The position numbers and the translations under genes are program-made. Source: Escherichia phage phiEC1. Taken from it: a stretch of 64,000 nucleotides of DNA. Every line of letters starts with the position of its first letter. The first letter of the stretch is position 1. This document shows positions 4 through 54,638 of the stretch, piece after piece. The notes beneath the pieces are model-generated. The model did not search any database, was not told the origin of the DNA, and saw only the letters and a program-made list of their open reading frames with translations. The stretch lies in the sequence record KY608965.1. One strand, given 5' to 3'.

Positions 4-639
4 ATGGCGACATACTACAGATTGTATATTACAACATTTGAAACATCCACTGGTATAAAGATTTATGGTGGTAAACACAAATCAGTTTACGAAGACCCTT
101 CAAAAGACCCTTATACTGGGTCTGGTACCTTTATACGAAGGGCCAAAAGAAAATACGGTCCGTCTTGTATAAAAGAAATTATATGGTCTAAGCCATTTGA
201 ATCTAAAGCTCTAATGGATGAAGCTGAAGAGTTACTGGTAGATGAATTATCCATTTTAGAAAATTGCGCAAATCTTGTTAAAGGTGGTGCAGGCGGAAGG
301 TCGTATATTAACCCAGAAGATAATCCATCTATAGGACAAAAACGTTCAGCCCAATCTAAAAAGAAAATGTCTGACGCCGCAAAATCAAGAAAATGGACTG
401 AAGAAGGGTTAAGAAAACGTAAAGAATCTACAGCAAGAATGTGGAAAGATTTCAAACATAGACATCCTGATTTTTCTGGTTCAAAAAATCCAGCAGCTCG
501 AAAAGTTAGTGTAAATGGTAAAATATTTAACACCTGCAAAGAATGTGGTGAAGAATTTAATATCACATCAAGCGCGGTTATAGGCCGATGCAAAAACAAC
601 AAACCTAAATGGGCAGGATGGAATTATGTCGACGTATAA
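4..639 (+). mobile_element. Free-standing GIY-YIG homing endonuclease gene (seg-like), immediately upstream of and overlapping gene 14
   Basis: N-terminal YYRLYITTFETSTGIKIYGGKH (GIY...YIG-type spacing) and ENCANLVKGGAGG (conserved Asn-GG region); basic C-terminal half with NUMOD3-like repeats; 3' end overlaps the gene 14 start by 14 nt. Confidence 0.7.
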
Positions 640-2264: not shown

Positions 2265-4587
<2,323 letters not shown>

Positions 4588-51685: not shown

Positions 51686-51801
51686 TATATTTACCTTTAT
51701 TTAGATTATTTAATTTATTTACAGTTGGTTGCTACGACACTTATACCTCGTAGCTGGTATGATTTATTTATAAAGTAATTTTAACACACAAGAAATAAAG
51801 C
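51686..51801 (-). promoter_or_regulatory. Gene 32 leader: hairpin plus long A/U-rich unstructured 5' UTR (autoregulatory translational operator-like), with TATAAATA-type element
   Basis: Minus-strand …CTACGAGGTATAAGTGTCGTAG CAACCAACTG TAAATAAATTAAATAATCTAAATAAAGGTAAATATA-ATG. Confidence 0.5.
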
Positions 51802-52455
51802 TTAATACTTACATGATTTGATTGTTTCTATGAACAATTTCTTAGCAGCATTTCCATCGATTTGAAGTATTTTTCGATATGCCTTTAATTTGGTAGAATA
51901 ATTTTGCCAGACTAAATTGTCAGTAAGTTCGTCATGCTTATCTATAATATTCAAGAATGAATCCAACAACAAGAAGGTTTCAAATGAAATTATATTGCTT
52001 TGTAGCAATTTGAATATGTAGCTCGACTGAACGTTGTTATTATAATCAAATATCTCTTGAAGCGCACTAACTTCAACTTTCTTACTGAAATAGTAGATGT
52101 TACGTACGTCTTCGGCAAATGTCTCTTTAGCTTGTTTGAGACGTCCAATATATTCCCTATAGAAAACTAATGCATCAGCGTCTGATATCTCACCAATCCA
52201 TGCGTCTTGGTTAGCAACTAAGTTGCTTATGAATATCAAGGTGAGTTCCTTCAATTTATATTTCTCTGCTAGTTTTTCAAAGAAATATTTATCTCGGCGT
52301 TTTTGATACGCATTATCCGAAACACGCATGCACCAGTTATATTTGATTACGTCATACCGACCACCAAAATGGTTTTTGCACATCAAGTATAGTTTATATA
52401 CCGATTTTCCATTAATATAACGTTCTCCATCAGGAGGCATGCGTATTTTAATCAT
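51802..52455 (-). CDS. 59: gp59 helicase-loading protein
   Basis: 217 aa, colinear with T4 gp59. Confidence 0.92.
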   Translation of the reverse strand: MIKIRMPPDGERYINGKSVYKLYLMCKNHFGGRYDVIKYNWCMRVSDNAYQKRRDKYFFEKLAEKYKLKELTLIFISNLVANQDAWIGEISDADALVFYREYIGRLKQAKETFAEDVRNIYYFSKKVEVSALQEIFDYNNNVQSSYIFKLLQSNIISFETFLLLDSFLNIIDKHDELTDNLVWQNYSTKLKAYRKILQIDGNAAKKLFIETIKSCKY

Positions 52456-53131
52456 ATTTCCATCCGGACCATTTTGAAGATTTAAGTCTATATGTAACTA
52501 AAGACGCAGAAATATTAAAAACATTTGAAACTTCTTTACACGAGGCGTATTTTATACCATCAATAATTATAGGTTTTTGTTTTTTAATAGTTCTTTCTTT
52601 AGAATGCGACTTTGAATTTGCTATTCTAAGAGCTTCTTTGGTTGAATCAGGCATCGGCTTATTCGTTTTTCGCCCTTTTCGGACTTTACTCAAGGCCAAT
52701 TTGTGAGCTTCAGATAGTTTCTTACCCTTATTAGGTGACGGTATTTTTCTTTCTAGTCTTGTTTTAGATACTTTAGCCTTAGTCTCTTCAGATCTAGGTT
52801 TACCTAATTTAGAAAGTGAAATAGACCTTTTAGCTTCATCACTTTGTTTTTTACCAGGACCACCTTTACCACCGGGAACTAAGTTATAAGTATCATCTCG
52901 CAAAACAAAATCTTCGTTAACCAATTCTGCTTCTTTTTTATAGGCGTCCTTGTCATTATCATATTCATAAAGAATTTCGGTATAAAAATTTTTTAGTCCA
53001 TATTTAGCTTTGGCCGCTAATATAGCGCGGCCTGATCCAATATACCAATCTTTCTCTTTATGTTTTTTGTGTACGCCTATATAAATTTTACCATTTATTT
53101 TATTGGTAGTTTTATACACAACGTATTTCAT
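52448..53131 (-). mobile_element. Free-standing GIY-YIG homing endonuclease gene (seg-like) inserted between genes 33 and 59
   Basis: MKYVVYKTTNKINGKIYIGVHKK… (GIY-x10-YIG), YNLVPGGKGG, C-terminal Lys/Ser-rich NUMOD-like repeats; overlaps gene 59 start (8 nt) and gene 33 stop (4 nt). Confidence 0.85.
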
Positions 53132-53466
53132 AATAAGAAATCTAACGTATTAGTTTTTTCACCACGAGCAACTGATGGGCGAAGCATGTTTTCGTCAATT
53201 GCTTCGCTTGTAATTTTTTCAACAATTCCTGTAGGAATAAATTTAGCAAATTGTGTTTCTGGAATAGAATTTTCTTCTAAGAAAGCAGTTGTTGCTTCTA
53301 AATAAGACATACCAAATTGTTCAACCATAGATTCGATAATGAATCCGTTTTCTTGACGGTCAAGCAATTTAGCGATATCATCTTTATCGTGTTTTACTGC
53401 TAATTCTTGTTCAGATAAACCGGCCTCATCAACCGGTTTAATATCACTTAGTGAAAACTGTGTCAT
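53128..53466 (-). CDS. 33: Late transcription accessory protein gp33
   Basis: 112 aa, colinear with T4 gp33. Confidence 0.92.
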   Translation of the reverse strand: MTQFSLSDIKPVDEAGLSEQELAVKHDKDDIAKLLDRQENGFIIESMVEQFGMSYLEATTAFLEENSIPETQFAKFIPTGIVEKITSEAIDENMLRPSVARGEKTNTLDFLL

Positions 53467-53713
53467 AAAGCTCGACTACCTCTTCGTTTTCAGCTTCAAA
53501 TTGGTCACGAGCATCTTTATGATAAAGAGCTAACAAACGATTAAACATTTTTCCATCGACACCAAGCTCTTCTTTAGCACGAGTACGAATGTCTTTAATC
53601 AGTTCATTATAACCAGAAATTTTAAGTTTGTTATCGGAAGCTTCCTTGACTAGTTTAGCCAGTTCTTCACCATGCACATCTTGATTAAATTCAACTGCTT
53701 CTTTCTTAGTCAT
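53444..53713 (-). CDS. dsbA: Double-stranded DNA-binding protein DsbA
   Basis: Start set at MTKKEAVEF… (SD GAGGTAA upstream; 89 aa); track ORF begins 6 codons earlier inside rnh. Confidence 0.85.
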   Translation of the reverse strand: MTKKEAVEFNQDVHGEELAKLVKEASDNKLKISGYNELIKDIRTRAKEELGVDGKMFNRLLALYHKDARDQFEAENEEVVELYDTVFTK

Positions 53714-53720
53714 GTTTACC

Positions 53721-54638
53721 TCAGAATTCATTAATTACACTTGTTAATTTAGAAAGTCCAGATTTTACAAAGTATGAATAAATCTTGCCTTTAGGTTGTT
53801 GTTTATATGAGTTATAATACTCTATAATGGTTGAAGCAATATTATCAGGGATATAATCAAAATCAATGAGAACCAAATTTTCTTGATACCGTTTATATTC
53901 TTCTGCACTTAATAATACTTCAGCTTGAGAACGGTCATTAGCAATTGCTTCAATAATTGATGTTTTCATGCTTGGAGTTCGTTCACCTTCAACTCTGGTA
54001 AACCAGAAGTCACCACGAACTCGAACAGATGCAACACCATCCTTACGGTCGCCTTTAAGAATTTTAGTCATGCAATCAATTTCAGCAGAACCGTTCTTAA
54101 TTTTAACCCATTTTTTCTGTGGTGGCGACCACTGTTTAACGTTAGGATATTTGTGTAATTGTGTAAAGTCACCATCTGATGCAACAATACATACCTTATG
54201 ACCGGCTAATGACAAATATTTAGTTAATACACCGATATGGTCATCCGCTTCATACTTGTCAATATCCATTACAACGTATGGCATGTATTTCTTAATCTCA
54301 TCAACAACTTGATGGAGTGCAGTAAAATATCCTTCCCAATCCCACTTTGAAGCTTCACGATCGGTTTTGCGATTTTTCTTGTAATAGTAAGCAAAGTCAC
54401 GTCGCCAATAACCTGAAGTAGCATTATCCATACACAATACAAATTTTGTATAGCCTTGCTTACGGAACATCACTACGTTTTTACGAATTGAATTCAAGAT
54501 TACATGGCGAACCATCGGAACAGTAATTTTATCACCATCTTCAAAGTTGTTTAATGCGGCTGCCAACGCAATGTTACTAAAGTCGGCAAGTGCAATACCT
54601 TCTTTGTAATCTTCATCCAACATCATTTCTAAATCCAT
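53721..54638 (-). CDS. rnh: RNase H (5'-3' exonuclease / flap endonuclease)
   Basis: 305 aa, colinear with T4 RNase H (MDLEMMLDEDYKEGI…). Confidence 0.95.
   Translation of the reverse strand: MDLEMMLDEDYKEGIALADFSNIALAAALNNFEDGDKITVPMVRHVILNSIRKNVVMFRKQGYTKFVLCMDNATSGYWRRDFAYYYKKNRKTDREASKWDWEGYFTALHQVVDEIKKYMPYVVMDIDKYEADDHIGVLTKYLSLAGHKVCIVASDGDFTQLHKYPNVKQWSPPQKKWVKIKNGSAEIDCMTKILKGDRKDGVASVRVRGDFWFTRVEGERTPSMKTSIIEAIANDRSQAEVLLSAEEYKRYQENLVLIDFDYIPDNIASTIIEYYNSYKQQPKGKIYSYFVKSGLSKLTSVINEF

Follow-up and report, generated by a model that had tools for sequence, protein, structure and literature searches.

Between genes 33 and 59 of an RB69-like phage of the genus Mosigvirus lies an open reading frame (ORF) that overlaps both of its neighbors, which raises the question of what this gene is, how it came to occupy the junction, and whether it is still mobile. 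The window that we analyzed is a 64,000-nucleotide stretch of Escherichia phage phiEC1 (KY608965.1), and an earlier note, made from the letters of the DNA, had described the ORF at 52448-53131 on the minus strand as a second GIY-YIG homing endonuclease inserted between these genes. The ORF list contains this frame exactly as described (227 amino acids plus a stop codon), and both of the overlaps attributed to it can be read directly from the DNA: the TGA of gene 33 and the ATG of the ORF share the ATGA at 53128-53131 (TTATTATGAAATAC), an overlap of 4 nt, and the gene 59 ATG at 52455 lies upstream of the TAA of the ORF at 52448-52450 (GGAAATATGATTAAAATA), an overlap of 8 nt. The TAA falls within codons 2 and 3 of gene 59, and the 8-nt overlap reads ATGATTAA. 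The gene is also rightly called the second of its kind, as another I-TevI-like ORF, 30% identical, occupies positions 31..627 of the window (plus strand). The junction is made up of the following features:

51802..52455, minus strand: gene 59, helicase loader, downstream neighbor (Pfam T4_Gp59_N, E of 1e-49; T4_Gp59_C, E of 1e-44)
52448..52455, minus strand: 3′ junction, ATGATTAA, where the end of the insert regenerates the gene 59 start
52448..53131, minus strand: homing endonuclease ORF, I-TevI/Seg-like GIY-YIG (TIGR01453, PHROG 314, hhalign to I-TevI)
52452..53127, minus strand: 676-bp insert relative to the empty 33/59 site (alignment with endonuclease-free Mosigvirus FP43)
53128..53131, minus strand: 5′ junction ATGA, gene 33 stop and endonuclease start (sequence, empty-site alignment)
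53128..53466, minus strand: gene 33, late-transcription coactivator, upstream neighbor (Pfam Trans_coact, E of 3.5e-26)

Scored by itself against the Pfam nuclease-domain models, the protein stays below the cutoff (SegE_GIY-YIG, 22.5 versus 25 bits; GIY-YIG [PF01541], E of 0.39), but its GIY-YIG identity is confirmed by TIGR01453, PHROG 314, the I-TevI profile, and Foldseek. The NCBIfam model TIGR01453, “group I intron endonuclease,” matches residues 4-226 of 227 with 74.2 bits (cutoff, 56.05), PHROG 314, “homing endonuclease,” matches with an E of 2e-55, and profile-profile comparison by hhalign with residues 1-243 of T4 I-TevI gave a probability of 97.8% and an E of 8e-13 at ~30% identity overall. 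When an AlphaFold model of the protein (pLDDT, 83.7) was submitted to Foldseek, the top matches were 1i3j and 1mk0, each with a probability of 1.00. The domains are arranged as follows:

52856..53131, minus strand: N-terminal GIY-YIG nuclease domain, residues 1-92 (Foldseek to the I-TevI catalytic domain, 1mk0)
52604..52855, minus strand: linker with four NUMOD3-like helical repeats, residues 93-176 (AlphaFold model and homolog alignment)
52454..52585, minus strand: C-terminal I-TevI-type helix-turn-helix DNA-binding domain, residues 183-226 (PF20987, 1i3j)

Within the nuclease domain, which is modeled with a pLDDT of 87-95 and matches 1mk0 with a target-normalized TM-score of 0.65, residues Y6, Y17, G19, E67, and N83 do not vary among 30 homologs, the first three of them in the motifs VVY6 and IY17IG19, and E67 and N83 are spaced by 16 residues, compared with 15 for E75 and N90 of I-TevI. 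Around the canonical arginine (I-TevI R27) the alignment with I-TevI is gapped; R35 varies among R, K, A, and S, and the nearby basic residue K43 is invariant. The linker contains four helices of the form [ST]-[DE]-x-x-K-x-x-[ILV]-[SA] between residues 97 and 173 (model helices 98-108, 115-128, 141-153, and 162-173). Pfam NUMOD3 (PF07460) scores 16.1 bits there against a cutoff of 20.4 (E of 0.011, two stretches) and is matched by many of the homologs, and in the alignment the last ~32 linker residues are missing from shorter variants of other genera. The C-terminal domain is matched by PF20987 (I-TevI_DNA-bd; E of 1e-11, 45 bits versus a cutoff of 27), and phmmer, besides the fold comparison, matches it to the I-TevI DNA-binding domain in PDB entry 1i3j (E of 4e-4). 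Enzymes of the I-TevI type make site-specific double-strand cuts with 2-nt 3′ overhangs. Judging by its sequence and modeled structure, we concluded that the 227-residue protein is a free-standing I-TevI/Seg-type homing endonuclease with a GIY-YIG domain, a NUMOD3-like linker, and a helix-turn-helix, and nuclease activity is predicted for it. Our literature search found no paper on an endonuclease at the 33/59 junction.

Many GenBank and RefSeq records already annotate the gene as “homing endonuclease” or “Seg-like,” and two, WFbE185 and 348Ecol098PP, label it “group I intron endonuclease.” That it is encoded within an intron, as the latter label implies, would agree with the name of the best NCBIfam model, but the genes that the ORF overlaps on either side are complete, and the corresponding empty site joins gene 33 to gene 59, not one exon to another. 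An Rfam search of positions 51700-53800 (E ≤ 1) returned no group I intron or other family, apart from one chance miRNA match. We rejected an intron-encoded endonuclease, to which we assign almost no probability, because there is no intron RNA and because the empty site joins two genes; the name reflects only homology to I-TevI.

How the gene came to lie at this junction can be read from phages that lack it. It is carried by 28 GenBank phages, and ~150 close relatives have a precise empty site with 96 to 99% identity in the flanks, as would fit a mobile insertion. In these empty sites, genes 33 and 59 overlap by ATGA, as they do in T4 and RB69, such that the same four nucleotides that combine the gene 33 stop with the endonuclease start in the window combine the gene 33 stop with the gene 59 start. 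For a population sample of Mosigvirus, genomes with the gene (11 of the 28 positives) and 10 genomes without it were fetched by record, and all 10 of the latter aligned in two pieces, at query positions 1-673 and 1345-2301; the IMG/VR scan gave a single Mosigvirus locus. Aligning the 33-59 interval across relatives, the check that had been proposed for this locus, thus yielded precise empty sites, the ATGA overlap, and an insert of 676 bp, the boundaries of which slide within a 5-nt direct repeat, TATGA. A single ICTV species, Mosigvirus shsm521, includes phages in the filled state and phages in the empty state.

None of the 11 Mosigvirus copies compared is disrupted, and their pN/pS is 0.135. 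Synonymous diversity within Mosigvirus is 0.08 for the endonuclease gene, similar to that of the flanks (0.04 to 0.14), and the flanks of carriers bear no signature of a recent sweep in the form of reduced diversity (gp59 pS, 0.139 in carriers and 0.137 in all genomes). In each of the two Mosigvirus flank haplogroups, some genomes have the gene and others lack it, and the variants of the gene follow the haplogroups. The gene is dispensable, since a twelfth copy, that of AV116, has a frameshift at nt 307 and its translation ends ~350 nt before gene 59. The AV116 phage was isolated and propagated despite this frameshifted copy.

Given that the gene is present or missing in close relatives and has already been annotated publicly, we regard it as real but not surprising, an ordinary selfish homing endonuclease gene. 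Free-standing endonuclease genes of the GIY-YIG and HNH types are known to abound in T4-like phages and differ even between the closest relatives. RB69, the type phage of Mosigvirus, has been described as being without such genes (PMC2993671), and the gene in the window means that RB69-like phages do carry them.

We found no T4 late promoter (TATAAATA) in the ORF or just upstream of it and no terminator-like site specific to the insert, and sigma-70-like matches (14, versus 10.0 ± 3.7 in shuffled sequences) were not above expectation; the gene 32 late promoter TATAAATA, at 51765-51772, lies outside the insert. The endonuclease gene also has no Shine-Dalgarno sequence of its own. Without promoter, terminator, or Shine-Dalgarno sequence, the gene is probably expressed by way of translational coupling. 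Inside the endonuclease ORF lie both the start of gene 59 and the only purine-rich stretch upstream of it (GGATGGAAAT), and the RNA around this start is unstructured in the filled site (z, +0.7). An RNA structure sequestering a ribosome-binding site or start was considered and rejected: the last part of gene 33 forms a hairpin with the ATGA region in both the filled and the empty states, which is no better than those of shuffled sequences (z, −1.0 and −0.8). The description of the gene as fully integrated into the operon was correct, though the arrangement is not unusual, because overlaps and the lack of a promoter are normal for free-standing endonuclease genes of T4, as documented for its promoter-less Seg and Mob cassettes that overlap their neighbors (PMC2988022).

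The same features would suit a gene that has become an inactive or domesticated passenger, one with no nuclease action that is kept for the translation-initiation context of gene 59 (from gene 33 through the ORF to gene 59), its precise loss being rare and its imprecise loss lethal. The endonuclease gene lacks its own translation-initiation region, both GGATGGAAAT and the start of gene 59 are embedded in it, its canonical arginine is not placed with confidence, and host expression signals embedded in endonuclease genes favor their retention, according to a review (PMC2988022). We nevertheless consider such a passenger unlikely. The low pN/pS holds over the whole protein, and Y6, Y17, E67, and N83 remain invariant in 30 diverged homologs, which implies selection on the protein and not merely on an open frame; moreover, in AV116 translation stops well short of gene 59, and yet this phage could be isolated and propagated.

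The junction is occupied in other T4-like groups as well. Homologs with 47 to 57% identity lie at the same position, between gp33 and gp59, in Dhakavirus (IME540, AnYang, and LQ5), in Serratia phages (CHI14, CBH8, and LC53), in Kosakonia phage Kc304, in Enterobacter phage KMB20, and in metagenome contigs. Their upstream overlap is always 4 nt and their downstream overlap is usually 8 nt, and ATGATTAA is an 8-nt direct repeat present at both junctions in four of five related lineages examined (L003, L044, L047, and L049). The same lineage, the same junction, and the same overlap design are thus found in at least four T4-like groups. We concluded that the 33/59 endonuclease lineage is site specific and old, that it occurs in several T4-like genera, and that nearly identical genomes differ in whether they have it. 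A lineage confined to one junction across genera, with phages that have the gene and phages that do not, offers natural “before and after” pairs.

Such a distribution might also have arisen from a single early entry at 33/59 in a T4-like ancestor, followed by vertical inheritance and no homing today, with the empty sites being deletions through the TATGA or ATGATTAA repeats or the products of recombination with empty relatives. Between genera, the endonucleases (47 to 57% identity) have diverged to the same order as gp33 (54 to 61%), the junction design is conserved and short direct repeats flank the insert, filled and empty genomes occur in both Mosigvirus flank haplogroups with variants that follow them, and both the decaying copy in AV116 and the low frequency among PG7-like phages, where the gene is present in 1 of 33, would fit. 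However, the empty ATGA is the state in T4, in RB69, and in most genera sampled, the coding sequence is under purifying selection, and loss does not speak against homing, since the standard life cycle of a homing endonuclease includes both. Strictly vertical descent appears to us very improbable, less likely still than a passenger, and a mosaic among the PG7-like phages bears on both.

In this mosaic, two independent assemblies that carry the gene (L047 and L048) and three endonuclease-free genomes (L009-L011) are 99 to 100% identical over more than 1 kb to either side, except at nt 24-84 of gene 59. This interval holds 20 of the 24 gene 59 differences within such a pair of PG7-like phages with and without the gene (binomial P of 2e-17). 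Across codons 13-28, the filled and empty states of PG7/CC31-like phages differ at all wobble positions. From nt 37 to nt 84, gene 59 of L047 is 92% identical to that of L044, another endonuclease-bearing lineage, and the first 420 nt of the endonuclease genes of L044 and L047 are 95 to 100% identical. L047 thus combines a PG7-like backbone with an L044-like 5′ part of the endonuclease gene and an L044-like gene 59 tract, and this requires lateral transfer. Movement of the gene together with a short adjacent tract argues against a domesticated passenger as well as against vertical inheritance since a single ancient entry.

Whereas lateral transfer with co-conversion is seen in the PG7-like same-site lineage, Mosigvirus displays only linkage of alleles, at nt 60-92 of gene 59. 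T60, A82, C84, and GG91-92 are common to all 11 endonuclease-positive copies; of the 10 genomes without the gene, 7 have another base at nt 60 and 5 depart from these alleles at nt 82/84/91-92 (Fisher P of 0.001 and 0.012, respectively, values that ignore phylogenetic non-independence and come from 11 of 28 positives). Because exactly the gene-linked alleles are present in 3 of the 10 endonuclease-free genomes, there is no fixed difference between the two classes. AV111, which lacks the gene, has the same patch sequence as the window, and FP43 and RB69 have the Q28/N32 allele of gp59. Diversity within Mosigvirus at nt 24-100 is 2.2 to 2.4 times that of the rest of gene 59. Across genera, the 33/59 junction is not a peak of DNA conservation (junction windows, 0.57 to 0.79; maximum, 0.90 at gene 59 nt 230-280), and gp59 residues 28 and 32 (N and G in the window) do not track the gene, the association being found only within Mosigvirus. 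The clustering of gene-linked differences leads us to predict a zone of cleavage and co-conversion in the first part of gene 59:

52364..52432, minus strand: predicted recognition/cleavage and co-conversion patch, gene 59 nt 24-92 (from clustered gene-linked differences)

This is a concrete prediction of a cleavage or resistance site, one that could serve engineered marker exclusion or Mosigvirus genome editing. It is conceivable, though we lean against it, that the endonuclease gene travels as one unit with the first ~90 nt of gene 59, which would be a cleavage-resistant target allele, and that endonuclease-free phages escape by recoding the patch. If that were so, the sequence at this junction would give a direct view of an arms race between endonuclease and target, of the swapping of DNA-binding modules, and of translational coupling to an essential replication gene.

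We think it probable that a free-standing I-TevI/Seg-type gene, expressed through coupling to its neighbors, homes at 33/59 and belongs to an old same-site lineage. The proposed mechanism would start from a 676-bp cassette that has no promoter and sits precisely at the ATGA joining the end of gene 33 to the start of gene 59; the cassette would capture the original gene 59 start codon and restore gene 59 with a new ATGA at its 3′ end, and the endonuclease would thereby be transcribed with dsbA, 33, and 59. Its translation would most likely be coupled to that of gene 33 by termination and reinitiation, and translation of gene 59 would be coupled in turn to that of the endonuclease, possibly aided by the weak GGA-rich stretch. 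When a phage with the gene and an endonuclease-free relative infect the same cell, the enzyme would be expected, from the behavior of the T4 Seg proteins, to make a double-strand break near the 33/59 junction, roughly within the first 90 nt of gene 59. Repair of the break by recombination with the genome that carries the endonuclease would then copy the gene along with the short gene 59 tract between junction and break, so that the gene would spread and the local markers of the rival would be excluded.

Among the named T4 systems, I-TevI of the td intron (catalytic domain, 1mk0/1ln0; DNA-binding domain, 1i3j) resembles the window protein in its GIY-YIG domain, its extended linker, and its C-terminal helix-turn-helix, including the C-terminal motif ...LVTYR.KS.KW..W.Y common to both. 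However, I-TevI lies inside a group I intron whereas the window gene is free-standing between two genes, and the linker of I-TevI has a zinc finger whereas that of the window protein has NUMOD3-like helices and no Cys cluster. The window gene also differs in having neither a late promoter of its own nor the design that sequesters the ribosome-binding site.

T4 SegG, which cleaves gene 32, is an element of the same kind in a neighboring position of the same replication gene cluster, and intronless homing, marker exclusion, and co-conversion would be expected of the window gene by analogy with it. SegG (gene 32.1) is a free-standing GIY-YIG endonuclease gene between 59 and 32, a cassette that lacks a promoter of its own and forms part of a polycistronic unit (PMC2988022), and it contains promoters of gene 32 (PMC2988022), whereas in the window the gene 32 late promoter is outside the insert. 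Orthology with SegG was rejected, as BLASTP gave an E of 4.1 with nothing beyond a GIY-YIG fragment and the locus is 33/59, on the other side of gene 59, and not 59/32. The earlier note had placed the gene between 59 and 33, at a site different from that of segG, and had suggested an independent invasion. The placement is correct: in T4, genes 33 and 59 are directly adjacent with a 4-nt overlap, so that the site is empty there, and we found no significant similarity to SegG. The finding that the note had named as a refutation, a homologous protein at this place in T4, is thus contradicted. As segG is at 59/32 and unrelated in sequence, a separate invasion is also correct, but it was not a one-off event, since the same lineage is at 33/59 in at least four T4-like groups.

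Of the named T-even paralogs, SegD and the homologs at its position (23/24) are the nearest in sequence, with 35 to 38% identity over ~98 to 100% of the length and the same domain order; SegD, however, lies among capsid genes, and neither an activity nor a target has been demonstrated for it (PMC2988022, Table 1). The depositors of Shf125875 named the gene at the identical locus “SegH; similar to RB3 segH.” SegH is also a Seg-type GIY-YIG endonuclease, but SegH of RB3/U5 replaces mobC, according to a title cited in PMC2988022, and so has another locus than the window gene. mobE of T4, at nrdA/nrdB, belongs to the HNH nuclease family and so differs in both nuclease family and locus, but its start overlaps the upstream stop (UAAUGA) by the same logic as the ATGA described here, and that overlap has been suggested to give translational coupling that limits endonuclease synthesis (PMC2988022).

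The minus-strand open reading frame (ORF) between gene 33 and gene 59 is a real feature and a homing endonuclease gene, as the earlier note had, essentially correctly, interpreted it. The ORF and its neighbours are as follows.

52448-53131, minus strand: 33|59 endonuclease ORF, 227 aa, first residues MKYVVYKTTNKINGKIYIGVHKK
Upstream neighbour: gp33, late-transcription coactivator (Pfam, E = 3.5e-26)
Downstream neighbour: gp59, helicase loader (Pfam, E = 1e-49 and 1e-44)
Farther upstream than gp33: dsbA (Pfam)
Farther downstream than gp59: gp32 (Pfam)

The coordinates and the overlaps of 4 nt with gene 33 and 8 nt with gene 59 that had been claimed for this ORF were borne out by the sequence. 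Read on the minus strand, the upstream ORF ends in ...TTA TTA TGA and the endonuclease ATG lies inside this end as ATGA (4-nt overlap, 53128-53131); at the downstream junction the endonuclease ends in ...TGG AAA TAT GAT TAA and the next ORF starts ATG ATT AAA ATA CGC (8-nt overlap, 52448-52455).

Taken singly, the endonuclease gave a weak nuclease-domain match to Pfam SegE_GIY-YIG (22.5 bits against a cutoff of 25) and an E value of 0.39 with Pfam GIY-YIG; its I-TevI DNA-binding domain was clear (Pfam, E = 1e-11). Residues 4-226 matched NCBIfam TIGR01453 ("group I intron endonuclease," an I-TevI-like family) at 74.2 bits against a cutoff of 56, PHROG 314 ("homing endonuclease") was matched with an E value of 2e-55, and a 30-homolog profile aligned with residues 1-243 of T4 I-TevI (97.8% probability, E = 8e-13). 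The best two PDB matches of an AlphaFold model (mean pLDDT 83.7) were 1i3j and 1mk0, the DNA-binding and catalytic domains of I-TevI (probability 1.00 each). These stronger family, profile and fold matches establish the GIY-YIG identity originally proposed. Residues Y6, Y17, G19, E67 and N83 do not vary among the 30 aligned sequences and occupy the GIY, YIG, Glu and Asn positions known from the superfamily; no equivalent of I-TevI R27 could be placed confidently in the endonuclease. As for the proposed NUMOD repeats, four helices in the inter-domain region carry a recurring NUMOD3-like pattern, [ST]-[DE]-x-x-K-x-x-[ILV]-[SA]; the Pfam NUMOD3 match was sub-threshold (E = 0.011). Among free-standing homing endonuclease genes, this one is a standard example of the I-TevI/Seg type. 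Its codon 175 (52607-52609) carries a private linker substitution, Ser175, where 10 of 10 other Mosigvirus copies examined have Pro175.

Mosigvirus (RB69-like) phages are 96 to 99% identical to the 33-59 region, the closest being Escherichia phage 55 (98.9%). The endonuclease ORF is present in 28 records, which cover the whole query and mostly label it "homing endonuclease" or "putative Seg-like homing DNA endonuclease," but it is absent from ~150 further records, as shown by a two-piece match to 71% of the query. Both states occur within one species (SHSML-52-1 with the gene, FP43 without it). Alignment with FP43 places the indel at 52452-53127; it is precisely 676 bp long and has the 5-nt repeat TATGA at its borders. 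At the empty site in FP43, the stop of gene 33 and the start of gene 59 share an ATGA, an arrangement also present in RB69 and T4. The insert therefore starts at the codon that formerly began gene 59 and supplies, at its 3' end, a new ATGA for gene 59; the endonuclease stop codon falls in gene 59 codons 2-3. In RB69 RefSeq NC_004928 (4074-4601 of the RB69 locus) and phage Mizar (403-987 of its locus), the annotated gene 59 is truncated at its 5' end, leaving an apparent gap of 66 to 122 nt after gene 33, but alignment showed that the full-length, ATGA-overlapping start is present there too.

Dozens of public Mosigvirus genomes already have the gene annotated on the basis of homology; our literature search found no experimental characterization of the 33|59 endonuclease. 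RB69 was stated in 2010 to lack such endonuclease genes (PMC2993671), but RB69-like phages are not exempt from them.

The earlier note had placed T4 segG in the 32/59 region and had suggested a separate invasion. In T4, segG does lie between genes 59 and 32, and its target is in gene 32 (PMC2988022), whereas the endonuclease studied here occupies the 33|59 position. SegG showed no significant similarity to it (E = 4.1), so the separate-invasion reading stands. Nor is the same protein found at the T4 33/59 junction, where the two genes directly adjoin with a 4-nt overlap.

After the 28 Mosigvirus copies, the next-best tblastn matches were in the Dhakavirus phages AnYang, IME540 and LQ5 (56% identity), followed by Serratia phages CHI14, CBH8 and LC53 and Kosakonia phage Kc304 (50-52%) and Enterobacter phage KMB20 (47%), all annotated beside the gp33 gene. 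Four metagenome homologs (P0004, P0006, P0010 and P0012) each lie between the Trans_coact (gp33) and gp59 genes, with an upstream overlap of 4 nt and a downstream overlap of usually 8 nt, and IME540 and the IMG/VR copy of CHI14 have the same layout. ATGATTAA occurs at both junctions in four of five lineages (L003, IME540; L044, another endonuclease-positive lineage; L047, PG7-like; and L049, a metagenome contig), in which the endonuclease starts MIK, the first codons of gp59; the phiEC1 protein starts MKY, one codon shorter. The LC53/CHI14 copy has the same start but a 26-nt overlap, because its endonuclease stop has been shifted by an altered gene 59 start region. Homologs in the 35 to 38% identity tier occupy the SegD position near genes 23/24, and at most of the T4-like loci sampled the ATGA junction is empty. 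The 33|59 endonuclease belongs to a site-specific lineage spanning several T4-like genera. IME540 (L003 3845-4462) and the related metagenome contig (L049 3846-4511) also have a further ORF (205 or 221 aa), without a Pfam match, between genes 59 and 32, the position held by segG in T4, so that gene 59 there has accessory ORFs on both sides.

Two independent assemblies of endonuclease-positive PG7-like phages (L047 and L048) are 99 to 100% identical to endonuclease-free loci of PG7/CC31-like Enterobacter phages (L009-L011) for >1 kb on each side, except at gene 59 nt 24-84 (3116-3176 versus 2524-2584), which holds 20 of the 24 gene 59 differences (binomial P = 2e-17) and in which every wobble position of codons 13-28 differs. 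The endonuclease-free tract has G/C-ending codons, unusual-looking for these phages by eye. Within the L047/L048 tract, nt 37-84 are 92% identical to L044, and the first 420 nt of the endonuclease gene are 95 to 100% identical between L044 and L047, whereas on the gene 33 side L047 matches L009 at 100% but L044 at only 78%. Such a footprint would be expected if the endonuclease had been acquired laterally along with a short tract co-converted on one side; only 1 of ~33 PG7-like GenBank records carries the gene. The endonuclease gene is itself a mosaic (L047 2501-3100 versus L044 2501-3196), its 3' part (linker end and DNA-binding domain) being 17 to 48% identical with a deletion of ~32 aa, and this divergence beside 5' identity suggests a swap of the DNA-binding module.

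In Mosigvirus, diversity at gene 59 nt 24-100 is 2.2 to 2.4 times that in the rest of the gene. All 11 gene-carrying genomes have T60, A82, C84 and GG91-92, coding N28 and G32, whereas nt 60 differs in 7 of the 10 endonuclease-free genomes and nt 82/84/91-92 in 5 of them, the latter 5 having Q28 and N32 as in T4 (Fisher P = 0.001 and 0.012, respectively, uncorrected for relatedness). The association is one-way only, since 3 of the 10 endonuclease-free genomes also have the linked alleles. We predict a target patch in the 5' end of gene 59, with a recognition or cleavage site within roughly the first 90 nt (52364-52432), at which gene-carrying genomes would hold a resistant allele. Neither cross-genus conservation nor the states of gp59 residues 28 and 32 in other genera added support for this patch. 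The prediction is testable and is the main point of note beyond a well-known kind of endonuclease.

The 11 Mosigvirus copies compared are all full length and differ by at most 40 nt and 12 aa, and the mean pN/pS of 0.135 (0.04-0.05 for gp33 and gp59) indicates that the protein is under purifying selection. A twelfth copy (AV116, OR352946; L051 801-1485) has a +1 insertion at nt 307 (GGT-CTA to GGTCCTA), and the frameshift after residue 102 cuts the protein off past the nuclease domain; in the record, the sole annotation here is a 3' "hypothetical protein." This copy is either a decaying gene or a sequencing error. Its truncation is in keeping with the decay that genes of this kind usually pass through, and a truncated copy implies that the gene is dispensable.

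Neither the ORF nor the stretch immediately before it contains a T4 late-promoter consensus (TATAAATA); a terminator-like site and enrichment of sigma-70-like matches are likewise missing, and the ATG is not preceded by a Shine-Dalgarno sequence. The simplest reading is translation via coupling at the ATGA, much as a review proposes translational coupling for T4 mobE (PMC2988022). The last gene 33 codons (53128-53167, minus strand) are predicted to pair with the ATGA start region in filled and empty (L001) sites, but this hairpin (-11 to -14 kcal/mol) was no better than shuffled controls (z about -1). The overlaps and expression features are typical rather than exceptional. The nearest same-strand consensus is an exact match at 51765-51772 (minus strand), between genes 59 and 32 and ahead of the latter; the whole window has 18 such sites against 7.1 expected.

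A second I-TevI-like ORF (31-627, plus strand; 199 aa), beginning close to the window edge, is 30% identical to the 33|59 endonuclease, with below-threshold Pfam matches to I-TevI_DNA-bd (E = 9e-5) and NUMOD3 (E = 0.006), and is presumably the "first" GIY-YIG endonuclease of the earlier note.
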